24,037 bases of DNA, taken from a virus. Shown piece by piece: positions 1,079 to 18,316 of this stretch; position 1 is the stretch's first letter, and every line of letters starts with the position of its first letter. Under the pieces are notes generated by a model. That model was not told the DNA's origin and did not search any database. It was given only the letters and a program-made list of their open reading frames with translations. The DNA is taken from the UHGV virus genome UHGV-0103738; one strand, 5' to 3'. The translations under genes and the position numbers were made by a program.

Positions 1079-3091
1079 ATGCTTAAATTTCGCCGCGAAC
1101 TTAACGGTTACGGTGGAGTTATTAACGAAGGGCATAACGATCAATACGAATTTGAAATTGCTTTCTCCAGTGAACAGCCTTATCAGCGCCAATTCTGGGA
1201 TGAGCAAAATCAAGAAATGGTGGTATTAGATGAAATTCTGGTACATACACCGGAAGCGGTTGATCTGTCTCGTCTGAATAATAACGCTCCGTTGCTGTTT
1301 AATCATAATTTCGATAATCATTTAGGTGTCGTTTGTAACGCTCGAATCGATGCGGATAAAGTAGGCCGTGCGACCGTTAGATTCTCTAAGCATGGCACTT
1401 TGGCTAATGATATTCGTAATAAAGTCATTGAAGGTACGATGGAAAAAATTTCTGTCGGTTATGACATTAAAGAATATCACATCGATTATGCCAAAGGACA
1501 ATTGATTGTTACTAAGTTTGTTCCTTTCGAATTAAGTTTTGTTACGGTCCCGGCGGACGATTCGGTCGGTTTAAATCGCTCTCTAAATACTATCACAGTT
1601 AATTTGGAGGCTAAACGCGATATGACTAAAGAACAAATTGAAGAAATCAAAGAAGAACAAGAATCCGCTCAGGTTGAAGAAACTCCGGTAGAAGAAAATA
1701 AAGAACCGGAAGTTGAAGAAACTCAAGAGCGCCAAGTTGAAGAGAATAAAGAAGATGAAAATCTCGAAGACGGAAAAGACGCTGAACATCCTGAAAGTGT
1801 TGATGATGATAGTTCAACTGTTCGGGAAACAGAAGAAGTAAAAGAAGAACGTGAAGCTGCTCCGGTTGAAGAAGAAAAAACCGAGGAAGTGGCTGAACGT
1901 TCCGAAGAAGACGAATTAGAAATTCGCGAAATTGCACGCGAGTTAAATATTAACGAAGACGATGAAGAATTTAAACGCGCATTGGCAAATAAAGAAATTA
2001 CGCCGGAAGCATTCCGCACTAAGGCACTAAATAACATTACCAATGCTCAACGTAATAACGAACAAATTAATAAGGAACAAATCATGGAAAAAACTTTCGA
2101 TCTTAATAACGTAATCCGCTCCCTGGTAGATGGCGACGTGCTCGGCGCTAACGAAGCTGAATATTCCGCAATGGCTGCTACTGCAACTATGCAGCGTGGT
2201 CGTGCTGCTCGTGGTGGCTCTGTATTCGTTCCGGCTGCTGCTATGCGTGCTGCTGCTGATGGCAACACCAAAGCTAATCTGGTTGCTATCACTGACGAAA
2301 AACTGATGACTGAATCCTACATCGAAATGCTGTTGCCTCAGAGTGTTTTAGGCCGCCTCGGGGTGACTGTTTATAGTGGCTTGACTTCTCCGACCGCTAT
2401 TCCAAAAATGACTAAATCCAGCGTTGACGCTTTCGGATTCGTTGACGAAAATGGCGCTGCCCCCGAGTCACATGCGGAATTTTCGAACGTGAAACTGTCT
2501 CCGAAAACTTTTGCTGGTGGCAACCCGATCAGCCGTCAGTCGCTGAAAACCGTTCCGGGCATCGCTACCCTGATCACCGATCACATTAACAAATCTGTTC
2601 GGATCAAACTGGAACAACTGATTCTGTCTGATAAAGAAAATGCTCGTGGTCCGGCTGGTCTGGTTAAGCAACTGGTAGACGCTAGCCGCGTTACCAAGAA
2701 AGCTGCTTTCTCTTATAAAGACTTCCTGAAAGAAATTGCAGCACTGACTGACGCTGGCGTTCCTGCTCAGGCGATCAAGTTTGCGATGAGCGGTGCAACT
2801 GCTGCTGAACTGGAATCTACCCTGAAAGATAACGGCGTTTCCGGTTATATCATCGAAAACGGCAAACTGGCTGGTTACGAAGTAGTTACTTCTGGCGTTA
2901 TTCCGGCAGACCACATCGTTCTGGGTGACTTCTCCGGTATTACTATCGGTGAGTGGGGCGGTCTGGAACTGGATATGGATCTAACTACATACCGTGATCG
3001 TGGTGCGGTAGTGCCTCGTATCTTTGTAGATTTGGACTACGTTGTAGCACAGCCGGAAGCTCTGAAAGTTCTTCACATCTCCGCTGAATGA
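1079..3091 (+). CDS. Prohead protease / acidic scaffold-like linker / major capsid protein encoded in one reading frame (670 aa)
   Basis: Shine-Dalgarno AAAGGTGA at 1067-1074, ATG at 1079. N-terminal ~170 aa carry HK97-family prohead protease-like motifs (ISVGY, ELSFVTVPADD). A Glu/Lys-rich low-complexity segment spans ~1620-2080. The C-terminal ~335 codons switch to codons typical of highly expressed genes (ctg, cgt, ggt, gct, ttc), as expected for a major capsid protein. Stop is TGA at 3089-3091. Confidence 0.8.
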   Translation: MLKFRRELNGYGGVINEGHNDQYEFEIAFSSEQPYQRQFWDEQNQEMVVLDEILVHTPEAVDLSRLNNNAPLLFNHNFDNHLGVVCNARIDADKVGRATVRFSKHGTLANDIRNKVIEGTMEKISVGYDIKEYHIDYAKGQLIVTKFVPFELSFVTVPADDSVGLNRSLNTITVNLEAKRDMTKEQIEEIKEEQESAQVEETPVEENKEPEVEETQERQVEENKEDENLEDGKDAEHPESVDDDSSTVRETEEVKEEREAAPVEEEKTEEVAERSEEDELEIREIARELNINEDDEEFKRALANKEITPEAFRTKALNNITNAQRNNEQINKEQIMEKTFDLNNVIRSLVDGDVLGANEAEYSAMAATATMQRGRAARGGSVFVPAAAMRAAADGNTKANLVAITDEKLMTESYIEMLLPQSVLGRLGVTVYSGLTSPTAIPKMTKSSVDAFGFVDENGAAPESHAEFSNVKLSPKTFAGGNPISRQSLKTVPGIATLITDHINKSVRIKLEQLILSDKENARGPAGLVKQLVDASRVTKKAAFSYKDFLKEIAALTDAGVPAQAIKFAMSGATAAELESTLKDNGVSGYIIENGKLAGYEVVTSGVIPADHIVLGDFSGITIGEWGGLELDMDLTTYRDRGAVVPRIFVDLDYVVAQPEALKVLHISAE

Positions 3092-3217
3092 ACTCCTGTA
3101 GAACCATCTGAACCTTCCCCCGATTTGGGGGAAGAAAATCTGATTCCTGAACCGGAAGAAGAATCCCAGACGGTTAAGGCGAAAGCCACAGCTAAAAAAC
3201 AGCGTAAAACTAAAGAA
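3092..3217 (+). other. Putative in-frame TGA read-through extension of the capsid protein (42 codons, TAA at 3218-3220)
   Basis: The frame stays open for 42 codons after the TGA, encoding TPVEPSEPSPDLGEENLIPEPEEESQTVKAKATAKKQRKTKE. It ends 5 nt before a terminator hairpin. A parallel arrangement follows the tail tube gene. Confidence 0.45.
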
Positions 3218-8488: not shown

Positions 8489-8962
8489 ATGTCTCAGCAA
8501 TTCAAAGATATTTTTACTGGTGGTCTGGTAAGTCTGTTCTATCACGCCGATACCACTAACACCGACCTTGCCGATGAAGCATACGAAGAAATTAAAGAGT
8601 GTGCTGGTTTTCCTGAAACTGGTATCGAGCGCGGTACTGTAGAAGTTAAATCCTTCTCTTCTCAGTATAACCGTAAACTGGTAGGTAAACTGAACGTTCC
8701 TGATCTGACTCTGACCGTTAACTACATTCCTGGTGATGCGGTACATGAGAAGCTCATAAAGGCTGCCGAAGACGGTACGCGTATTCAAATCAAAGTTGAA
8801 TACTATGTTGACGCCGGAAAACAGACTGGTATTCGCACTGCTTTCAACGGCTTTATTTCTAAAGTTGCTATGAACGGTGGCGATGAAGAAGTGGTAACGA
8901 AAGAGTTTACCTTTGCTGTTGATGGTGCTCCGCTGAAACAGCAAATCTTCACTGCCGGATGA
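8489..8962 (+). CDS. Major tail tube protein (157 aa)
   Basis: SD AAGGGGTAA. Strongly biased highly-expressed codon usage. Lies upstream of the chaperone and tape-measure genes and is followed by a strong terminator. Stop is TGA at 8960-8962. Confidence 0.7.
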   Translation: MSQQFKDIFTGGLVSLFYHADTTNTDLADEAYEEIKECAGFPETGIERGTVEVKSFSSQYNRKLVGKLNVPDLTLTVNYIPGDAVHEKLIKAAEDGTRIQIKVEYYVDAGKQTGIRTAFNGFISKVAMNGGDEEVVTKEFTFAVDGAPLKQQIFTAG

Positions 8963-9685: not shown

Positions 9686-9994
9686 ATGAATATTAATGAA
9701 ATGCTGAAAGCTCTTTCTCCGAAACGTGAATCTCTGACCATCGGCGGATTCACGTTCTATGCTCGCCCTATGTCAGTAAAAGAATTTAACGAACATGTTT
9801 TCAATACTGATAAAGAAGACCGTGATGAACGTTCGATTCTTCGTTGTATTGAAGATGAAGACGGTAAACCGGTATTTGAATCTATGGAACAAGTTAAGGC
9901 ACTGTATACTAACGTCCGCAGTGAATTAATCGGTTTGGTTGCTCAAGCGTCATTGATGCAAGATCCGGCAGTAATTGAAAACGAGGTAAAGTAA
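9686..9994 (+). CDS. Tail assembly chaperone (lambda gpG-like by position, 102 aa)
   Basis: SD AGAGGAAA. Small acidic protein immediately upstream of the tape measure gene, with a second ORF in the -1 frame overlapping its 3' end. Confidence 0.55.
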   Translation: MNINEMLKALSPKRESLTIGGFTFYARPMSVKEFNEHVFNTDKEDRDERSILRCIEDEDGKPVFESMEQVKALYTNVRSELIGLVAQASLMQDPAVIENEVK

Positions 9995-10023: not shown

Positions 10024-10374
10024 ATGATGCGATCGGGGCTTAGTAAAGATGAAATGGATAATATGCCAATCACTCTGTTTTGGAAATTATACATTTTCGA
10101 CACCTACTTAGAACCACAAAGCCCCGCGTTTCATGATATGCAGAATGCGATGTTGCAATATTCCATGTATATGACGTCGCAAGGAATGACTCGTGAAACT
10201 GCAAAGAAACTCAAGCCTAGCCAATTCCAATTAATTAGAGAAGAAAAACTCTTTAAAACTAAAGAAGAACTGGAAGAACTTGCACGCAAGAAAGAAGAAG
10301 AACGTAAAGCTGCAACATTGAGCATGTTCGATCCATCTTTGCTTGAGAAACTCAGAAGCGCACAAACGGGGTAA
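10024..10374 (+). CDS. Tail assembly chaperone -1 frame segment (gpT-like; frame open from 9979)
   Basis: ORF in the -1 frame relative to 9686..9994. No SD upstream of ATG 10024, and the frame is open back to 9979, overlapping the last five codons of the upstream gene. This fits expression as a frameshift fusion. Confidence 0.5.
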   Translation: MMRSGLSKDEMDNMPITLFWKLYIFDTYLEPQSPAFHDMQNAMLQYSMYMTSQGMTRETAKKLKPSQFQLIREEKLFKTKEELEELARKKEEERKAATLSMFDPSLLEKLRSAQTG

Positions 10375-10377
10375 TTT

Positions 10378-12810
10378 ATGACAAAACATATAGTAACAAT
10401 AGAAGGGGATAATAAAGGTCTAAGGAGAAGTACCAGTGAAGCCGCCGACCTTCTCGATAGTTTGTCTGAAAAGGCAAGTGGTATTGATTTTGGTGGTGGC
10501 TTGTCTGGTTTGACTGGATCTCTTCGTGGGATCGCTGGCTCTGCTGGTTTGGCTGCTGGTGGTATCGGCTTAGTTGCGACCGCAGTGGTTGCAGCCGCTA
10601 AAGCTGGTGCGGAATACGTTAAACAGTATTCAGAAGTATCTAAGGCGACCGGACTCTCGATTGAATCCCTTCAAAGACTAGAAAAGGAATTTTCTGGTAC
10701 TGGCCTAACAGTTGAAAAATTCGGTGATATCAACAAAGACACCTTAGATAAGATGGGTGATGCATGGGCTAACGGTGGTGGTATTGCTGATGACTTAGAA
10801 TCGGTTGGTCTTAAGTTAGAAAACTATGCTCACTTCATGACAGATCCGCAAGGTGGTATGAAAGCGGCGATCCAAGTGTTCTATGACATGAAGAAAGCCG
10901 GAAAATCAATGGCTGAAATCAAGTTCATGATGGAATCTTTAGCCAGTGATTCAAGCCATATGACCAGCCAGCTTGAGAAATATAATAGTGCTCAAGAGGC
11001 GATGATCGCTATTCAGAATCAATCTGTTAACGTCACCGAAGAAAACGCTAAAAAATATGATAAATTTTCTCAGAATATTAATAAGCTGGAAAATAACCTG
11101 AAAGGCGCAGCCATGACCATTACTGGTCCTTTGGTTGATAGCTTAAACTGGTTATTTGAATGGTTTAATATTGATTGGGAAAAGAGTTCTCTATTCAGGG
11201 CATTAGATCGACTGAATAAAGAAGGCAAGACCGCAACTGGTGGTATTCTTAACGCCAACCATAAAGACGCTCAAAAGATTATTGACAAGTACAATAAAGA
11301 AAAGCGTTGGAATAATCTAGCAGATTGGGAAAAGGCCGCGATCCGTGGTGCTGGTGTCGATCCTCGTACTGCTGGCTTTGATGTTGAAGGATTTAAGAAA
11401 CGTTTTGGTGGGTCTTATAAAACTTCAAGTGGTGCTCTGATTGTCGTAGATGCAGGTGAACATCTGACACGCAAGGCAGATCCTAACACTGATTTGACTA
11501 TACCAAATAAACCAGTAAGACCAGAATCATTGGGTAAGTCTGGCAACGAGAAGAAAGCCGAGGAAGAAGCCAAAAAGAAAGCGGAAGAGGCAGCTAAAAA
11601 GGCTAAGGAAGCCGCAGAAAAAGCACAGAAAGCACGCGAGGATGCAATCAAGCGACTGAATGCACTTGATGTTAAATTGCAAGGGCAAGTTGCAGCGTCT
11701 ATCACTTCTCAAAATAGCCAGTTGCAAAACAGCTTAAAAGATGTGAACGACGCGTTAGCTCTGGGCTTAATCTCTCAGGAAGACGCAGCCGCGAAACGCC
11801 AGGCGCTAATCGATCAGAATACTGAAAACGTTTATAAAATGATGTTGGGTGCTGATCCGATTGATGCTCTGAATGCTTTAACACAATTGCAACAAATCAG
11901 GGACAACGAGCTAGAAAGCCATAAACGGTTACTTGATGGTAAAGCTATCTCCTACGAAGAATATATGCGTCGTGTGAACGATACCGAGCAAAACTATTCT
12001 CAGATTGAAAATTCTTTACAGGGAATGGATGGTTATAAAACCAATCAATTAACTAGTGGTTATGATTATCAAGACTCAAATAATCCGTTTGCTAAATTTA
12101 ATGCAATCGATAAAGAGAAATCGGATGCTGAACAAGATTATAAGACCGATAAACTCAAGATTGACGGTATTAATGATCCGGCTAAACGGATGGAAGCATT
12201 AGAAAAACTCAATGAAAACCATCAAAAACGGATGGCTGCAATTGAAAAGAAATATGCTGATGCTCGTCAGTCAATAGCTGATGATATGTACGGCGGTTTT
12301 GCTGCTGCAATGACTCTCTTCGGGCAGGAAAACACAAAAGCTATGCAGATGGCTTTCAATGCTCATAAAGCATTCTCAATTGGACAAGCGACGGTGAACA
12401 TGTGGACGGCTGCTACCGATGCATGGAACGATCCGACCAACGTAACCACAGGTCAAAAGATCGCTGCTGCTGCATTGGCTGTTTCTCAGAACATGGGGAA
12501 CATTGCAAACATCAAGTCTACTAATGTTAGCGGTATGGCTCATGATGGTATCGATAACATCCCGCGTGAGGGTACATGGTTGCTTGATAAGGGTGAACGA
12601 GTAGTTGATCAGCGTACTAACGGTGATTTGAAAGACTTCTTATCTGCTCAAAAATCAGGCGGTGGTAACTCTCAGCCGATTGAAGTTAATGCGCCTTTGA
12701 ACATTAACGGCAACGTTAATAGCTCAGACAAGATGGTTATGGATGCTATCAAACGTCACGCTAAGTTAGTTGCTCAGGCGGTAGAAGACGCACAGCGTCG
12801 TAAGATGTAA
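10378..12810 (+). CDS. Tail tape measure protein (810 aa)
   Basis: Position after the chaperone pair. N-terminal Gly-rich hydrophobic segment, long coiled-coil and Lys/Glu/Ala-rich stretches, C-terminal Gly-rich region. Confidence 0.85.
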   Translation: MTKHIVTIEGDNKGLRRSTSEAADLLDSLSEKASGIDFGGGLSGLTGSLRGIAGSAGLAAGGIGLVATAVVAAAKAGAEYVKQYSEVSKATGLSIESLQRLEKEFSGTGLTVEKFGDINKDTLDKMGDAWANGGGIADDLESVGLKLENYAHFMTDPQGGMKAAIQVFYDMKKAGKSMAEIKFMMESLASDSSHMTSQLEKYNSAQEAMIAIQNQSVNVTEENAKKYDKFSQNINKLENNLKGAAMTITGPLVDSLNWLFEWFNIDWEKSSLFRALDRLNKEGKTATGGILNANHKDAQKIIDKYNKEKRWNNLADWEKAAIRGAGVDPRTAGFDVEGFKKRFGGSYKTSSGALIVVDAGEHLTRKADPNTDLTIPNKPVRPESLGKSGNEKKAEEEAKKKAEEAAKKAKEAAEKAQKAREDAIKRLNALDVKLQGQVAASITSQNSQLQNSLKDVNDALALGLISQEDAAAKRQALIDQNTENVYKMMLGADPIDALNALTQLQQIRDNELESHKRLLDGKAISYEEYMRRVNDTEQNYSQIENSLQGMDGYKTNQLTSGYDYQDSNNPFAKFNAIDKEKSDAEQDYKTDKLKIDGINDPAKRMEALEKLNENHQKRMAAIEKKYADARQSIADDMYGGFAAAMTLFGQENTKAMQMAFNAHKAFSIGQATVNMWTAATDAWNDPTNVTTGQKIAAAALAVSQNMGNIANIKSTNVSGMAHDGIDNIPREGTWLLDKGERVVDQRTNGDLKDFLSAQKSGGGNSQPIEVNAPLNINGNVNSSDKMVMDAIKRHAKLVAQAVEDAQRRKM

Positions 12811-12815
12811 TTAAA

Positions 12816-12859
12816 AGCCCCCATAGTCATAAATAATCATAAAACTATGGGGGCTTTTC
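12816..12859 (+). terminator. Hairpin with T-run after the tape measure gene
   Basis: Stem AGCCCCCATAG / CTATGGGGGCT (11 bp) with an 18-nt A/T-rich loop TCATAAATAATCATAAAA, followed by TTTT. Confidence 0.55.
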
Positions 12860-12860
12860 T

Positions 12861-13421
12861 ATGTTCAAATCCAAGAATATTAAAATCACAGATTTTACTC
12901 TTAAATCAAAACAACCTTTCTTCAAGGCGCAATCTATTTCTGGTAAGTTCCAGCGTCGCTTTACTGGCATTCATTTTTATGAAGCAGAATTTACAGCTAA
13001 TTTCATGGCTCAGGATATTAACGAAGTAAAAGAATTTGTAGCACGTCACCTTTTTGGTCGTCCTTTTAGTGTGCCACTGTCTTACTTTTCAAAATATACA
13101 GGTGATGTACGCCAGATGGTTACGGCTGCTGCTGGTACTGCTCGCGGTGGGCGTAAGGTGAGAATCTCCAACTTCACCGGAACACTGAAAGCGGGAACTA
13201 TCATCCAGTTTGAGAACCACAAGAAAATCTACACGATCACCGAAGACGTGAAATCAGGTGGTGAAATGAAACTCTTCCCTAACTTGCGTCAAAACGTCCT
13301 GGCTGGTGAGGTGATCAAGTATCAGAACGTAGAAGGCGAATTTGTTCTCAAAACTGAAAATATCGATTGGAAGATCGCCCAGATTGGCAAGATGAAATTC
13401 GAATTAGTGGAGAATGTATAA
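12861..13421 (+). CDS. Minor tail protein (distal tail protein candidate, 186 aa)
   Basis: First gene after the tape measure protein. Stop TAA overlaps the next start (TAATG at 13419-13423). Confidence 0.5.
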   Translation: MFKSKNIKITDFTLKSKQPFFKAQSISGKFQRRFTGIHFYEAEFTANFMAQDINEVKEFVARHLFGRPFSVPLSYFSKYTGDVRQMVTAAAGTARGGRKVRISNFTGTLKAGTIIQFENHKKIYTITEDVKSGGEMKLFPNLRQNVLAGEVIKYQNVEGEFVLKTENIDWKIAQIGKMKFELVENV

Positions 13422-14074
13422 TGGCAACTATTCAGGAATCATTCAGCAAACTATGCACTAATCTGGACTTCATCGAGGTCTACAACGACCAGACAGGTCA
13501 GAATGTGTCTAGATTGACTCTACCGCAGCTTTTCTCTACTGGATCGATGTTTCACATTATCGAAGTAGTAACCGCGTCAGGGGACGTTCTACGGCTTACA
13601 GATGGGTATTTCGATCTGGACTATAACGGATTTACGTATCTCGCAACGGGTGATTTTCTTCAAATCTCATCGAATACCGAAGAGAAGGAGATCAACAACA
13701 ACGGGATCAACGTAACTGTTTCTAACGTTCGCGAAGAATACATTACCCTGATTCGAAACAAGCAATTCGATAAATCTGATGTGAAAATCGAGATGGTTTT
13801 CCTTAACCCCAACACGGGCAAGGTTGAAACTACTTACCCTGTTTTCCGTGGGGTAGTCGATTCCATCGGTATTAACATCGAACATGAAGATGATGAGTGT
13901 AAAAACGAATCAGAATTTCAGCTTAATAGTATCTGGGAAGTTCTAGATAAAAACGCTCGTAGTCATGCCTCCGATGGTATCCACCGATCCTATGTTGGAA
14001 ACGAGAACGATCTATTCTTCTCCCGTGCCGGGAAGTGGCAAAGCGAAAGCAAGTGGCATTCATCGAAGAAATAA
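13421..14074 (+). CDS. Minor tail protein (217 aa; start at ATG 13421 rather than track start 13367)
   Basis: Same frame as track ORF 13367..14074. ATG 13421 overlaps the upstream stop by 1 nt. Sits at the lambda gpL-like position of the tail-tip cluster. Confidence 0.5.
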   Translation: MATIQESFSKLCTNLDFIEVYNDQTGQNVSRLTLPQLFSTGSMFHIIEVVTASGDVLRLTDGYFDLDYNGFTYLATGDFLQISSNTEEKEINNNGINVTVSNVREEYITLIRNKQFDKSDVKIEMVFLNPNTGKVETTYPVFRGVVDSIGINIEHEDDECKNESEFQLNSIWEVLDKNARSHASDGIHRSYVGNENDLFFSRAGKWQSESKWHSSKK

Positions 14075-14120
14075 TCCCTTCTCCCTAAGCCTAGTAAATA
14101 ACAGCATGGAGGTATTCAAC

Positions 14121-14540
14121 ATGCTAAAAACTAGGCTTATCACCGATTACATCAATTCTTTAATAGGTCAGGAGTTCGTTCAAGGCGAGAATGATTGCAA
14201 TCTCATTGCATGTAAGATCATCGATATTCTCGCTGGTACTGACCTATATAATTCTCTTTATAAAAAATATTCAACTAAAGAAGAAGGCTTGAAAATCTGC
14301 AAAGAATTAAGCGGATATTCAAACATCCTTCAACCAATTAAGAAACATTTCAAATTAGTCACTGATGATTTACAGGACGGCGACTTACTGGTCACAGCCC
14401 ACAAATTAGGAAACCGTAATTATTATTCCGTAGTTCCTCATTATTCCGGTTATGGCCTCGTTGAAGAAGATGGTATCTGGATGACCATTCCTGTTTCAGA
14501 CATTGACTATGAACAAGTTTATAGATTCGGGGGTGAATAA
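14121..14540 (+). CDS. Tail assembly protein, gpK-like with possible NlpC/P60-type Cys motif (139 aa)
   Basis: GGAGG at 14108-14112 sits 8 nt before ATG 14121. ENDCNLIAC resembles the catalytic Cys motif of NlpC/P60 domains. Located immediately upstream of the J-like gene, with a TAATG overlap at 14538-14542. Confidence 0.5.
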   Translation: MLKTRLITDYINSLIGQEFVQGENDCNLIACKIIDILAGTDLYNSLYKKYSTKEEGLKICKELSGYSNILQPIKKHFKLVTDDLQDGDLLVTAHKLGNRNYYSVVPHYSGYGLVEEDGIWMTIPVSDIDYEQVYRFGGE

Positions 14541-17500
14541 TGGGATTTGAAATATTGGTAGGCGCGGTTATTGCTGGTGCGTCTGCTGGGATGGCTGCTG
14601 CTGCAACATTTTCTGTTATGACCGCAGTCGCTATCGGTATGGCTGCTGGTGCAATGACCTTGATCGCTTCCACTGTAGGCGCACCAAAAACACCGAAAGT
14701 ACAAAGCCCAGATAATGCGGTGACACTAGGAACATCAAACGATCCGAAGACAGTATTACCCGTTCTTTTCGGTACTACCCGCACGGGTGCAATCTGCGTT
14801 TACAAAGCAATTTCTAAGCAAGAAAACAATAAGTTAGTGCAAATCTTCGCAATTGCAGAGGGTGAAATCGACCATTACAAAGCACTATTCATCGATAACA
14901 AAAATGTTCTTGTTGGTAAGAACATGACGATCCGTGATGGTGTACTGGACAAAGGCAACATTAAAGAAGAATACCGGAAAGTTTTAGAGGTTGAGTTCCG
15001 CACTGGTAAGAATCCTAACACCGCTTTGTCACTGGCAAAACGTCACTTAGGGTCAGACTGGAACGACAACTACAAAGGCAATGGTATTGCGACCATGTGT
15101 ATTGTGTTGCGTCGTGATGACAAATCTCTTGCTGCTGGTGTTGATATTCTCCAACCAAATAGCCAGGTAGCGGTAGACGTTTGCGGGTTAAAGATTCGTA
15201 ACCTTGAAACCAATGCTATTGAGGCTAGCACTAACGGCGTGGACCAGATTTTCCATTATCTGACAAATACAAAATATGGTCTTAGTGTACCAATTGAAAA
15301 CATCAACGTTGATTCATTCCTGAAAGTACGTAAGCAAGTACGCCAGATGGATTTGCATTCAAACGGTGCATGTGATCCGAACGCCAGCTTTAAAGAGAAC
15401 TTGACTAGCCTTATGCAGACTTTCGGCGGGGTGATGTTCGAATCCTTTGGACGTATTACGCTGAAACTGGATGCTCCTGATATTGTTAAGCATACCTTCA
15501 ATGAAGACAATATCATGATGGGTAAGGTATCACTGAAAACAGGTGGCACTAACGGTTATTTCAATACCATTAACGCGATGTATCAAGAACCATCAATCGA
15601 CTATTCAGAGCAAATGCTACGTTATCCGGCTGATGCTGAAAACGATGCTACTATTCGTCAAGATGGTCGAATTATCGCTAAAGATATTGAATATCGTTTT
15701 GTTAAGTCTAAAGCCCAGATTGATAAACTTGCGAGTATTGAGCGAAATAAATCTCGTATCACTCAGGTTATCAGCTTTATGACTACTGACGCATTCACTG
15801 CCGAAGTTTGGGACGTTATCAGCGTAACCTATGATGAATTGAAGCTGAATAATTCCTTATGGCGTATTACTGCAATTGATCGCTCGATTGATTCTGGTAT
15901 TGCTGGGATGATGACTATCACCGCTACAGAATATAATTCTCAGGTTTATACTGACCTGAACTATGCGGCTAACCCAGATAACCGACCAAGTGGTTTACCG
16001 GATTCAATGACAGTACAGAAGCCTACTAATTTCAGAATTAAGGCAACTGGCGAGACGATTTACGGTAAAAACGTTACTTTGACATGGGATGCACCAGAAG
16101 ATTTTAACCGCTACGGCTTCCAGATTGATTACCGTGTAAGCGGATCACCTAACTGGATTAAGTTGGGACAGACTTCACAGCAAATTTTCAGTGTCAATGC
16201 ACTGGCAAAAGATCGTTCCTACGATTACCGAGTTTGTGCTTTCGGTATCATCGCGAGATCCGATTGGGTAGAACTGATTAACCAGAATCCTACTGTTACC
16301 TATGAATTGCCGACTCCGGTTATTCGAATCAAAAATCAGGGTAGCACGCCAGGAACTTTCGAAGGTAATGATCTGATTATCGAATGGGAAAATCAGCAAC
16401 AATTAGATGTTGAGATCAACGGTGAAACTAACAAGTTTAGTGACCTGTTTGAAGCATACATTATCAAGGTGACTAACAAGGCTGGTAAGTCTATTCAGTA
16501 CCGTACCCGCGATCCTGAATCATGGACTTATACGCTTGATATGAACCAGTTTAACGGCCTTTCGCGTCAACTTACGGTAGAAGTATCAGCTAAGGGCTAT
16601 AACAACTCAGAGAGCGCCCCAGCGCGTTTAGTGGCTATCAACCCACAACATAAGCCAATGAAAGGTTTTAGTGCGCGTGGTGGCTTTAATACTGCGTTTG
16701 TTAGCTGGGCGGATGACGTAGAACATGACTATGCAGGGTCAATCATCCAGTATGCAACCGACAACACTTTCTCAGATGCAAGGGCAGTAAGTACGAATAG
16801 TGTTAGCCATACTTCCTTTGATATTGCTGACGGTGATTATTATATCCGTGGTGCTCACTACGATATTTTCGGTATGGATGATGCTGTTTGGTCTGAACCG
16901 TATTTCATGCAAATGAAGTCTACGATTAGTTGGGACGATCAGGACAAAGAAGCACTGGAAGACCTGATCGGTTTACAAGATCGCTTAGATGAAACTATCG
17001 CGGATGCTATTAAGCAAGCTGGCGCTAATGCCGATGCTAAAATTGATGCAATGCATAAGCAAATCACTACCGAGACGGGTAAAACTGTTCAAGCCTCAGC
17101 CGATACCTTAAAGAGTCTGATTGCTTCTGGTGATAAGGCAAGTTCAACTAAGATTGATCAGGTTAAAGCTGAACTGAAAGGCGATATCACCAAAGAAGTT
17201 AGCGCCTCCGCTACAACCCTGAAACAAGCAATTGCAACCAGTGAGGCAGCAAGCGCAAGTAAGATTGATCAAGTTCGGGTAGAAATGGATGGCAAGATTG
17301 CTGGTGTGAATCAGGAAGCAGATGTAAAAATCGATGCTTTGAAAGGAACCATTAACAGCAAATACAATCTGGCGGTTAATGCAGATGGTCGCGTGGCTGG
17401 TATTCATATGAGCGCAACCAATGATCCGGCAGAACCGACAAGAATCATCTTTACGGCTGATAAAATCGCGGTAGCTCCACAGAATGGATCGGGGGTATGT

Positions 17501-18316
17501 CCGTTTGGTATCGAAGGTAACAAGGTTTATCTCGATAATGCGATGATTCGTAATGCTGCAATTGGTACAGCCCAGATTAATGATGCGGCGATTACTACTG
17601 CCAAGATCGGCAATGCCGCAATTAACAGCGCGAAGATTCAGGACGGGGCAATCACTAACGCCAAGATCGTAAACGGTGCAATTGATAACGCCAAAATTGG
17701 TAACTATATCCAGTCTTCCAACTGGAACGGATCAACCGGATGGCATATCAACAAGAACGGGTCCGCTACGTTCATGAACGCTACCGTTAAAGGTAATATC
17801 ACGGCTGATTCTGGTACTCTGAACAACGTCACGATTAACTCTAGCTGTGTTATTAAGGGTATGCTTGAAGCTACTCAGGTTAAGGGTGATTTCGTTAAGG
17901 TGATTGGTCGTAAGTTCCCACACCGTGATGTTAACGTTGATAATGGTTATGGCGGCTATCCGCAAGGTACAGTAACCGTTCGCGTTGAAGATGATCACAA
18001 GTTCGATCGTCAAATCGTTATTCCGGCGATTAGTTTTGGTGGATTGCGAGCGCGTGAAGGGTCGAACAATAATACCTATTACGACACCTGTCGCCTGATT
18101 GTTCGTAAGAATGGGTCAGAGTTGTATAATAGGGCGTATGGCGGTAATACTGGTCTTTACTCAGGTGTTATTGATATGCCAGCGGGTAAAGGTGCTGTGA
18201 CCTTGACCTTTGAAGTGCAATCAAGCGCAATCAACAACTGGACGCCTAGCACATGGATCAGTGATTTAACTGTAATGGTAACTAAAAAAGCCACTACGGG
18301 TATTACTGTTTCTTAA
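14540..18316 (+). CDS. Central tail fibre / tip attachment protein, lambda gpJ-like, with an N-terminal gpI-like hydrophobic domain (1258 aa)
   Basis: C-terminal ~150 aa resemble the remembered lambda J C-terminus (TLNNVTINSSC..., VEDDHKFDRQIVIP, VIDMPAGKGAVTLTF, DLTVMVTKK). Fibronectin III-like segment around 16000-16300. N-terminal Ala/Gly-rich hydrophobic region followed by APKTPKVQ...VLPVLFG, resembling the lambda gpI C-terminus. Confidence 0.85.
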   Translation: MGFEILVGAVIAGASAGMAAAATFSVMTAVAIGMAAGAMTLIASTVGAPKTPKVQSPDNAVTLGTSNDPKTVLPVLFGTTRTGAICVYKAISKQENNKLVQIFAIAEGEIDHYKALFIDNKNVLVGKNMTIRDGVLDKGNIKEEYRKVLEVEFRTGKNPNTALSLAKRHLGSDWNDNYKGNGIATMCIVLRRDDKSLAAGVDILQPNSQVAVDVCGLKIRNLETNAIEASTNGVDQIFHYLTNTKYGLSVPIENINVDSFLKVRKQVRQMDLHSNGACDPNASFKENLTSLMQTFGGVMFESFGRITLKLDAPDIVKHTFNEDNIMMGKVSLKTGGTNGYFNTINAMYQEPSIDYSEQMLRYPADAENDATIRQDGRIIAKDIEYRFVKSKAQIDKLASIERNKSRITQVISFMTTDAFTAEVWDVISVTYDELKLNNSLWRITAIDRSIDSGIAGMMTITATEYNSQVYTDLNYAANPDNRPSGLPDSMTVQKPTNFRIKATGETIYGKNVTLTWDAPEDFNRYGFQIDYRVSGSPNWIKLGQTSQQIFSVNALAKDRSYDYRVCAFGIIARSDWVELINQNPTVTYELPTPVIRIKNQGSTPGTFEGNDLIIEWENQQQLDVEINGETNKFSDLFEAYIIKVTNKAGKSIQYRTRDPESWTYTLDMNQFNGLSRQLTVEVSAKGYNNSESAPARLVAINPQHKPMKGFSARGGFNTAFVSWADDVEHDYAGSIIQYATDNTFSDARAVSTNSVSHTSFDIADGDYYIRGAHYDIFGMDDAVWSEPYFMQMKSTISWDDQDKEALEDLIGLQDRLDETIADAIKQAGANADAKIDAMHKQITTETGKTVQASADTLKSLIASGDKASSTKIDQVKAELKGDITKEVSASATTLKQAIATSEAASASKIDQVRVEMDGKIAGVNQEADVKIDALKGTINSKYNLAVNADGRVAGIHMSATNDPAEPTRIIFTADKIAVAPQNGSGVCPFGIEGNKVYLDNAMIRNAAIGTAQINDAAITTAKIGNAAINSAKIQDGAITNAKIVNGAIDNAKIGNYIQSSNWNGSTGWHINKNGSATFMNATVKGNITADSGTLNNVTINSSCVIKGMLEATQVKGDFVKVIGRKFPHRDVNVDNGYGGYPQGTVTVRVEDDHKFDRQIVIPAISFGGLRAREGSNNNTYYDTCRLIVRKNGSELYNRAYGGNTGLYSGVIDMPAGKGAVTLTFEVQSSAINNWTPSTWISDLTVMVTKKATTGITVS

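Follow-up and report, generated by a model that had tools for sequence, protein, structure and literature searches.

A probable gpI-like plug/penetration module at the N-terminus of the J-like tail-tip protein of an Escherichia coli prophage

Nucleotides 14540-14830 of the 24,037-nucleotide window (the whole stretch of DNA analyzed) very probably encode a genuine N-terminal plug/penetration module of a tail-tip hub protein, homologous to the C-terminal half of phage lambda gpI. These coordinates agree well with the boundary of the module, which contains two Ala/Gly-rich hydrophobic helices, a APKTPKVQSPDN stretch and a VLPVLFGTTRTG strand. The module is homologous to gpI, is read in a single frame with the remainder of the J-like protein, is conserved, and is general in the family to which this protein belongs (features are listed in Table 1). 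The feature is real but ordinary, since tip proteins that carry such a module are the rule in a large family of phage tail hubs; the separate gpI of lambda, with its ubiquitin-like (Ubl) domain, is the special arrangement.

Table 1. Coordinates of the tail-tip genes and of the parts of the J-like protein
Feature	Position	Strand	Extent	Assignment or remark
Tape measure protein	10378..12810	+	810 aa	Position, size, coiled repetitive sequence
Distal tail protein	12861..13421	+	186 aa	phrog_1302 'distal tail protein', 2.6e-16
L-position hub protein	13421..14074	+	217 aa	RcGTA g13 / phiJL001 gp84 type
K-position gene	14121..14540	+	139 aa	DUF6950, NlpC/P60 fold, no JAB/MPN domain; stop overlaps J start
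J-like protein ORF	14540-18316	+	1258 aa	
gpI-like module	14540-14830	+	Residues 1-97	Part of the 1258-aa J-like protein
Two Ala/Gly-rich hydrophobic helices	14540..14680	+	Residues 1-47	
Polar segment APKTPKVQSPDNAVTLGTSNDPKT	14681..14752	+	Residues 48-71	
Strand VLPVLFGTTRTGAICVYKAIS	14753..14815	+	Residues 72-92	Counterpart of gpI 192-212
Predicted turn KQENN	14816..14830	+	Residues 93-97	Point where lambda splits into gpI/gpJ
Rest of J-like central hub/fibre protein	14831..18316	+		Pfam, BLASTP, Foldseek

Tail-tip genes and spread of the fused layout

The prophage tail-tip set is GTA-like (distal tail protein, DUF2163-type hub, small NlpC/P60 peptidase and megatron-like J), and can therefore dispense with gpI's ubiquitin-like domain and gpK's JAB domain, two domains that occur together in lambda-type phages. 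The L-position hub matches Phage_phiJL001_Gp84_N in Pfam (8.1e-6) and phrog_2048 (7.7e-28). Pfam finds DUF6950 and no Prok-JAB match in the K-position protein; a PDB sequence search with this protein and a literature search on DUF6950 both returned nothing. The label 'K-like', proposed in the sequence-only reading, fits the NlpC/P60 half of gpK and fails for the JAB half, which is absent here. A homolog of the tape measure protein occurs in phage DCP80, and its C-terminus is conserved; from the contacts between lambda gpH and gpI (PMC10721106, PMC12617516) we infer that the C-terminus of the tape measure protein is the partner resting on the plug.

A separate gene I is indeed lacking between the K-position gene and the J-like gene, as had been claimed: the stop codon of the former overlaps the ATG of the latter (TAATG, 14538-14542), with GGGGGTGA upstream of the start. 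The N-terminal, ubiquitin-like domain of gpI is likewise absent (no PF06805 match at E ≤ 1 with Pfam in residues 1-110 or in the whole J-like protein; no tblastn match of gpI 1-100 to the window, best E = 1.5), and there is neither a remnant of this domain nor an I-J spacer. Nor do other frames conceal a Ubl or JAB coding region, as judged by tblastn (for gpK against the window, best E = 2.6).

The sequence-only reading suggested a fusion or a loss of the I N-terminal domain; taken as an unusual, recent and lineage-specific fusion, this would mean that a lambda-like ancestor lost the Ubl domain together with the stop codon of gene I, the remainder being welded to J. Prophages with TAPI fused to TAPJ, accompanied by JAB-less peptidases, are on record (Iyer et al. 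2006, PMC1779556), and the receptor-binding C-terminal part of the present protein is lambda-J-like, from which it follows that exchange with lambdoid phages has occurred; both points favor this origin, which we nevertheless consider unlikely given how widespread the layout is. The same module stands at the N-terminus, starting at residue 1-50, in 139 of 150 J-like relatives (the best 150 of the 50%-identity representatives, down to 22-30% identity) and heads a long ORF in all 80 distant environmental viral loci examined, and phage DCP80 has the same five-gene layout as the prophage. In a sample of 22 distant loci, the genes preceding J encode DUF6950, hub or HlyC-like proteins, never JAB or Lambda_tail_I. 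RcGTA g15 aligns in the same way, though weakly, and the adjoining hub, Dit and peptidase genes are of GTA type, with no tblastn match in the window to lambda gpL, gpM or gpK; the missing Ubl remnant and I-J spacer also argue against a recent weld. The N-terminus is not the product of a peculiar local event: it matches the standard N-termini of this branch of the J family, an outcome that the sequence-only reading had itself named as a refutation.

Several searches returned few relatives or none: megablast with the tail-tip region found no match among phages and plasmids, tblastn with the N-terminus found DCP80 only in the phage collection, and a word-index protein search with residues 1-130 gave six truncated close relatives only. 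When lambda gpI was included in the alignment, the protein search and the viral-contig scan were swamped by E. coli gpI and were uninformative on fused forms. For the pattern-based locus search the diversity of the broad alignment (A2) was too great, and a narrower subfamily alignment (A4) worked.

Similarity to lambda gpI and predicted fold

The resemblance to the C-terminal part of gpI that had been suspected from the letters proves, on alignment, to be significant and to reflect homology. J-like residues 48-107 match gpI 156-223 with 35% identity in BLASTP (E = 6e-7), and an hhalign comparison with the gpI-family alignment pairs J-like residues 49-95 with gpI 159-211 (probability 94.9%, E = 4.3e-8). 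The gpI family profile phrog_32 matches the module at profile positions 100-200 of 203 (E = 1.5e-3), and a profile built from fused forms only recovers 116 of 116 gpI relatives. A PDB sequence search with residues 1-130 returned gpI chains only (E = 0.03); with the family profile, the PDB search returned gpI 118-222 (1.5e-5), T5 pb3 260-314 (1e-7) and also the F2-pyocin I-like protein. On phrog_31 the matches are colinear (gpI 54-209 at 132-276, gpJ 1-300 at 263-562, and J-like residues 6-121 at 182-311), and in these coordinates the lambda I|J boundary maps to about residue 94-98 of the J-like protein.

[quoted passage not shown] They have an Ala+Gly content of 45% and one charged residue, as does gpI 98-155, and a Kyte-Doolittle 19-residue mean of 1.83-1.88, the upper value being the maximum of the whole J-like protein. 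HMMER aligns them to gpI 118-155; the significant profile-profile match is confined to residues 49-95, and, as judged from sequence, homology of residues 1-47 to the gpI helices cannot be separated from common composition. Residues 48-71 are the counterpart of the gpI 'plug' (159-175) and of the loop that follows it; their APK--TPKVQSPDN pairs with gpI APKARTPRIQTTDN in BLASTP, and the segment lies within the hhalign match. The strand that comes next bears an xPVxYG..R.G motif found family-wide, includes the sole invariant column among 33 diverse N-termini (G78), and matches both T5 pb3 from residue 260 and gpI VLPVLYGEMRVGS in profile searches.

Ala/Gly-rich segments readily align, the single-sequence PDB match is a marginal one, and Pfam finds no gpI match in residues 1-110, all of which would suit a low-complexity hydrophobic anchor or signal-like segment unrelated to gpI. 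We regard such a chance resemblance as very improbable. The Pfam model PF06805 (Lambda_tail_I) spans gpI 14-97 only, where it matches lambda gpI at 1.1e-28, so that no match to the N-terminus was possible and its absence is uninformative. The significant matches fall in the non-hydrophobic part and are colinear on phrog_31, and gpI matches survive masking of the hydrophobic part in profile searches. Among 2000 composition-matched shuffles, 1 reached E ≤ 10, with 15.0 bits, below the 19.7 bits of lambda gpI.

Beyond the module, the J-like protein comprises hub domains, FN3-like repeats, a coiled region, and a lambda-J-like tip and receptor-binding domain. Pfam matches Ig_GpJ_C (7.6e-34) and Phage_Tail_Tip (1.7e-19); Phage-tail_3 scores 19.9 bits, under the cut-off of 23, and FNIII-A_GpJ, Ig_J and Ig_J_second, all of which lambda J matches, are not found. 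The C-terminus matches lambda J 872-1131 (BLASTP E = 3e-35; PDB 9wca_J, 1.4e-53).

Structure prediction is in keeping with a homologous module joined to a hub. In a Foldseek search, residues 1-400 resemble T5 pb3 (E = 2.9e-18, the best match), lambda gpJ (5.7e-9) and RcGTA g15 (1.3e-8), and the predicted strands 79-91 (pLDDT 86-89) and 98-107 flank the lambda break point, which falls between them. According to the prediction, the first conserved strand of the J-like body, LVQIFAIAEGEI, comes immediately after the module strand VLPVLFGTTRTG; a hairpin of the two strands is presumed because they are neighbors, the model being read for secondary structure only and not for contacts. Residues 1-56 are disordered in the AlphaFold monomer, with no confident structure there (pLDDT <50 in residues 1-47).

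The reading frame

The gpI-like part is translated as the start of J in one uninterrupted frame, as first described, and the small ORF or frameshift that might have been hidden near 14400-14600 did not materialize: the frame is unbroken in the window, in 29 IMG/VR loci (residues 1-400 continuous) and in DCP80. E. coli EC416, in which the prophage lies at 3138-3169 kb of NZ_AP027404, has the same 3777-nt CDS, as annotated by PGAP; matches occur in 56 of 5426 E. coli genomes, and in the 10 listed one tail-tip CDS lies under the match. The ratio pN/pS is 0.08-0.25 for codons 1-97, compared with 0.09-0.11 for codons 98-400. Residues 41-131 hold no in-frame start codon with a Shine-Dalgarno-like sequence, which led us to reject an internal restart near the junction; post-translational cleavage of the module from the body may occur, being compatible with the sequence. 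An artefact of annotation or assembly (a small I gene concealed by a frameshift or an overlooked stop, or a true J start downstream), for which the overlapping reverse-strand ORFs at 14392-14784 and 14519-14704 might be cited, is scarcely credible against the unbroken frame, the EC416 CDS, the single CDS in the listed genomes, the pN/pS values in the J frame and the lack of an internal start, those reverse-strand ORFs being most simply taken for chance ORFs opposite a GC-rich Ala/Gly coding stretch.

Proposed function and comparison with known systems

The plug and membrane-insertion roles of the module are ones that we infer from other phages, by way of the cryo-EM of lambda, RcGTA, R4C, T5 and Avs-1 (PMC11101478, PMC10721106, PMC12617516, PMC7296036, PMC10276861, PMC13612043, bioRxiv 10.1101/2022.09.20.507954); the role of the N-terminal hydrophobic helices comes from two of these sources (PMC11101478, PMC7296036). 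By analogy, three copies of the module would form a trimeric plug that shuts the tail lumen under the C-terminus of the tape measure protein. Once the C-terminal receptor-binding domain met its receptor, the hub domains would swing open and free the plug, and the hydrophobic helices would then enter the outer membrane, where they may contribute to opening the way out for the DNA and the tape measure protein.

More tentatively, at somewhat less than an even chance, plug and hub may ancestrally have formed a single-chain protein, of which the lambda layout (Ubl-gpI and gpJ, JAB being on gpK) would be a derived, split form. The point of fission would then lie in the turn between strands 79-91 and 98-107, the first strand of gpJ would be paired in trans with the last strand of gpI, and the Ubl/JAB pair would have been recruited for handling the freed hydrophobic fragment. 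If so, the prophage would serve, in the host that it shares with lambda, as a natural 'unsplit' control for the role of the Ubl and JAB domains in lambda tail assembly, a question standing since 2006.

Whatever its history, the N-terminal plug/penetration module is of importance chiefly for annotation. Because the Pfam gpI model describes the ubiquitin-like half only, the module is unlabelled in many J-like proteins (the PGAP name of this one is "phage tail tip domain-containing protein", nothing more). Once recognized, it accounts for the missing gene I in such prophages and for the K-position gene being a bare NlpC/P60 domain, and it connects by sequence, weakly in the case of RcGTA, what has been described structurally as the plug of lambda gpI, as the iris/penetration domain of RcGTA and as the region that follows the T5 plug. 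It gives a modest experimental handle on the unexplained lambda Ubl-JAB pair and reveals no new mechanism.

In the C-terminal half of lambda gpI ('TAPI-C'; PDB 8IYK chain I, 8XCG, 9E7M) the same parts occur in the same order as in the module: a pair of hydrophobic helices rich in Ala and Gly, then a plug segment (APK..TP+.Q..DN), then a strand (VLPVLYG.R.G). This part of gpI makes up the trimeric plug beneath gpH, and its entry into the outer membrane has been proposed. Lambda gpI, however, is a protein of its own (223 aa), has a ubiquitin-like domain (PF06805) at its N-terminus and is encoded between K and J, and gpK has a JAB domain, whereas the prophage has neither domain and its module is covalently part of the J-like chain. 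With lambda gpJ the J-like protein shares the C-terminal fibre/receptor-binding domain, but the lambda-type N-terminal domains (FNIII-A_GpJ, Ig_J, and Phage-tail_3 above the cut-off) are not found in it. The TAPI-TAPJ fusions of Iyer et al. (2006) were detected through their Ubl domain, which the J-like protein does not have. Aeromonas phage Avs-1 gp23, as described in the literature (PMC13612043), is also counted among the nearest known systems.

In T5 pb3 (PDB 7ZHJ), residues 260-314 (IPVVYG...GEIDGF), just after the plug, match J-like residues of about 68-122 (E = 1e-7). The T5 plug closes the tube and, after opening, anchors in the outer membrane; it is a beta-hairpin inside the chain (an HDII insertion), in contrast to the N-terminal hydrophobic helices of the J-like protein, and the single pb3 chain includes the HDI (gpL-like) hub, which in the prophage has its own gene (13421-14074). 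According to the T5 authors, an N-terminal pore-lining helix 'cannot be a general feature' of siphophages; N-terminal elements that close the lumen have been observed on hub proteins by cryo-EM.

The megatrons, RcGTA g15 and that of roseophage R4C (PDB 6TBA/6TEH), likewise have an N-terminal hydrophobic segment on the J-like chain itself, and this iris/penetration domain has been proposed as a gate of the lumen and as a penetrator of the outer membrane. The g15 N-terminus gives weak, colinear matches to our family profiles, in one stretch with A2 (E = 0.014, residues 6-139) and in two pieces with A4 (E = 0.0011, residues 1-88 and 115-140); the single J-like sequence did not match RcGTA g15 in the PDB. 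The megatron and the J-like protein differ at their C-termini (a fibre-binding domain in the former, a lambda-J-like fibre/receptor-binding part in the latter) and in their hosts (an alphaproteobacterium for RcGTA, E. coli for the prophage). The partner genes of RcGTA type are shared (a DUF2163-type [gp84_N] hub, a small peptidase of roughly 150 aa just upstream, and Dit), as is the megatron-type order of hydrophobic helices at the extreme N-terminus followed by hub domains.

The gpI-like module

The first 97 residues of the J-like protein (14540-14830) had been likened, in a sequence-only reading, to the C-terminal part of lambda gpI, and both the resemblance and its boundaries were borne out. 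Residues 1-47 are 45% Ala plus Gly with one charged residue, contain the top hydrophobic 19-residue windows of the entire protein (Kyte-Doolittle 1.83-1.88) and equal lambda gpI 98-155 in composition; gpI 156-223 aligns with residues 48-107 at 35% identity (E = 6e-7), with APK--TPKVQSPDN over APKARTPRIQTTDN and VLPVLFGTTRTG over VLPVLYGEMRVG. A PDB sequence search with residues 1-130 returned gpI chains as its sole matches, and the gpI family profile phrog_32 is matched through its positions 100-200 of 203. Pfam found no gpI match at this N-terminus, because its Lambda_tail_I model spans only gpI 14-97, the ubiquitin-like half.

We also built a profile from fused J-like N-termini alone (module and J body on one chain), excluding gpI sequences; it recovered lambda gpI and all of the 115 gpI relatives tested, at residues ~100-211. 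One of 2000 composition-matched shuffles reached E <= 10 against this profile, at 15.0 bits, as compared with 19.7 for lambda gpI itself, the only gpI family member used in that comparison. Profile-profile alignment with the gpI family (probability 94.9%, E = 4.3e-8) pairs residues 49-95 with gpI 159-211, in the non-hydrophobic portion of the module; for the hydrophobic helices, homology to gpI is not provable from sequence apart from composition and position.

One continuous gene in a prophage

The window is an Escherichia coli prophage: its 12800-16000 stretch is matched in 56 of 5426 complete E. coli genomes (80-99% identity), chromosomally every time, and in the EC416 copy, which has a serine recombinase, hicB and ydcR border the recombinase side. 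The stop codon of the DUF6950 gene overlaps the J start codon (TAATG), which GGGGGTGA precedes.

A gene I concealed by a missed small ORF or a frameshift can be rejected. PGAP calls the same 3777-nt CDS in EC416, one tail-tip CDS underlies the match in 10 of 10 E. coli genomes among the matches listed, and the frame is intact in 29 IMG/VR loci (92-100% identity) and in the related phage DCP80 (41% identity across the N-terminal 110 residues). Codons 1-97 have a pN/pS of 0.08-0.25, similar to the rest of the gene (0.09-0.11); no in-frame start codon between residues 41 and 131 has a Shine-Dalgarno-like sequence; and tblastn of the window with the gpI ubiquitin-like domain, gpK, gpL and gpM gave no match, only gpI 98-223 matching, in the J frame (14612-14860, E = 4.5e-5). 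Together these results confirm that a separate gene I is absent.

Upstream, the fibre-like ORF follows the head-tail joining genes and precedes the tail tube gene, an unusual place for a side fibre gene, and the Gp38-like ORF interrupts the run from tail tube to tail assembly chaperone genes.

Features of the window and of compared loci, with profile positions around the lambda I|J cut
Feature	Position	Strand	Match or place
Fibre-like ORF, 1176 aa	4902-8432	+	T4 gp34 trimerisation domain (1e-36); C-terminal Peptidase_S74 intramolecular chaperone domain (8e-14)
Tail tube gene	8489-8962
Gp38-like ORF, 168 aa	9137-9643	+	T4 Gp38 adhesin N-terminal domain (3.9e-15)
Tail assembly chaperone genes	9686-9994, 10024-10374
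Tape measure protein	10378-12810	+	First in tail-tip gene order
Distal tail protein	12861-13421	+	Second in tail-tip gene order
Hub protein	13421-14074	+	phiJL001-gp84 / DUF2163 type
DUF6950 protein, 139 aa	14121-14540	+	K-position gene
J-like protein, 1258 aa	14540-18316	+
Receptor-binding region, J-like residues 1067-1258	17738-18313	+	PDB 9wca_J, 'A8 gpJ 713'
HlyC-like ORFs, other loci	L160:1429-1812, L168:1024-1413, L170:3426-3836, L182:1908-2306		Pfam HlyC
Lambda genes I and J	L001:2274-2945 and 3006-3100
DCP80 tail-tip module	L002:3701-11675		Colinear with window
Lambda gpI	Residues 54-209		phrog_31 (PHROG J-family profile) 132-276
Lambda gpJ	Residues 1-300		phrog_31 263-562
J-like protein	Residues 6-121		phrog_31 182-311

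Junction, mosaic and neighbours

By its phrog_31 mapping, the J-like protein is continuous across the lambda I|J cut, which falls close to residue 94-98. Residues 1-400 were modelled with AlphaFold on a 26-row alignment (mean pLDDT 73.7); the model becomes confident at about residue 61, leaves residues 1-56 without structure in the monomer, and places a strand on either side of the cut: 79-91 (the gpI-like YG strand) and, after a short turn, 98-107 (LVQIFAIAEG, the first gpJ-like strand). From their adjacency we infer that the two strands, which the tool reports as secondary structure rather than contacts, would pair as a hairpin. Lambda gpI binds gpJ through beta-sheet augmentation (PMC10721106); the predicted pair fits that structure, and on this reading the gpI-gpJ contact would be made within one chain. 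The best structural matches of the model are T5 pb3 (E = 2.9e-18), lambda gpJ (5.7e-9) and RcGTA g15 (1.3e-8). Lambda gpI ends in GGQVVVIGR, which family profiles place on the strand LVQVFALG, where gpJ ~22-35 (QLLSVIDAISEG) also aligns; this could be what is left of a strand duplicated at an ancient fission site, or a coincidence.

The C-terminal receptor-binding region resembles 9wca_J (E = 1.4e-53) far more closely than it does lambda gpJ (E = 3e-34), and the N-terminal two thirds of the chain is not of lambda type; the J-like protein is therefore a mosaic of megatron-type hub and lambda-type tip. The siphophage-type module of DCP80 (PQ671644.1, Escherichia phage) encodes TMP, Dit, hub, a DUF6950-like protein and fused J, its Dit-like and DUF6950-like ORFs lacking annotation in the record. 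That 141-kb record is filed under Straboviridae/Gaprivervirus, and its taxonomic assignment or assembly looks odd.

DUF6950 is the sole Pfam match of the K-position protein, whereas lambda gpK matches both NLPC_P60 and Prok-JAB; the K-position gene is thus the counterpart of the NlpC/P60 half of gpK, without the JAB half. Among 22 sampled upstream ORFs of distant fused loci (six DUF6950, at least five hub proteins, six HlyC-like acyltransferases), none matched JAB or Lambda_tail_I. HlyC is the RTX-toxin lysine acyltransferase family. In a distant branch of the fused J-like loci, a 128-137-aa HlyC-like ORF (best E = 2.7e-17; similar ORFs in IMG/VR loci L162-166, L171 and L187-189) lies directly upstream of the J-like gene, in the place held by DUF6950 in the window, and its product might acylate a tail-tip protein, aiding membrane insertion. 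The lack of JAB and Lambda_tail_I upstream agrees with the definition of TAPI as Ubl, Gly-rich linker and TAPI-C, with the Ubl predicted to be processed by the JAB domain of K (Iyer et al. 2006, PMC1779556).

The fused layout among known systems

When residues 1-450 were searched exhaustively with HMMER against 1.84 billion representative proteins, 1389 relatives emerged (E <= 1e-3). The best 150 of these include 139 long proteins whose module begins within residues 1-50; of the 11 exceptions, four are fragments and most of the other seven start right at the YG motif, while in one, which lacks a hydrophobic segment, the motif comes ~36 residues into the chain. Among 80 distant environmental viral loci, every one encodes a long ORF in which the motif falls between residues 48 and 136. 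The suggestion of a fusion, or of loss of the gpI N-terminal domain, is half right, holding for the module and the missing gene I, but the layout itself is not unusual: megatron-type J-like proteins are built this way as standard, an already-known kind of arrangement, and the special case is lambda, where I and J are split and accompanied by the accessory Ubl-JAB pair. The feature matters mainly for annotation, and it might also offer a natural unsplit counterpart with which to compare lambda gpI/gpK.

A PDB search with a profile of such N-termini returned T5 pb3 260-314 (E = 1e-7), lambda gpI 118-222 (1.5e-5), the gpI-like F2 pyocin protein and, weakly, RcGTA g15 residues 6-139 (E = 0.014). 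Under a narrower subfamily profile the g15 match splits into residues 1-88 and 115-140 (E = 0.0011); it runs colinearly from residue 1, though it stays weak. In T5, the pb3 segment comes immediately after the plug, the hairpin of which has its tip at pb3 233-236 (bioRxiv 10.1101/2022.09.20.507954).

By homology and position, residues 1-97 should do the gpI-type job while attached to the hub, and would serve as a gpI- or iris-type lumen closure and membrane entry element. In lambda, gpI 101/135-223 forms a trimer in the tip lumen, H1, H2 and the plug (159-175) lying beneath the gpH C-terminal coiled coil and strands passing through gaps in gpJ; after LamB binding the hub domains shift outward and the plug disassembles, and the proposal is that H1 and H2 move into the outer membrane (PMC11101478, PMC10721106, PMC12617516). 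The iris that closes the channel in RcGTA and roseophage R4C is built from roughly the first 45 megatron residues, for which a pore-lining helix is proposed (PMC7296036, PMC10276861). A gpI-like tripod, formed by the N-terminal part of the hub protein gp23, lies beneath the tape measure protein in Aeromonas phage Avs-1 (PMC13612043).
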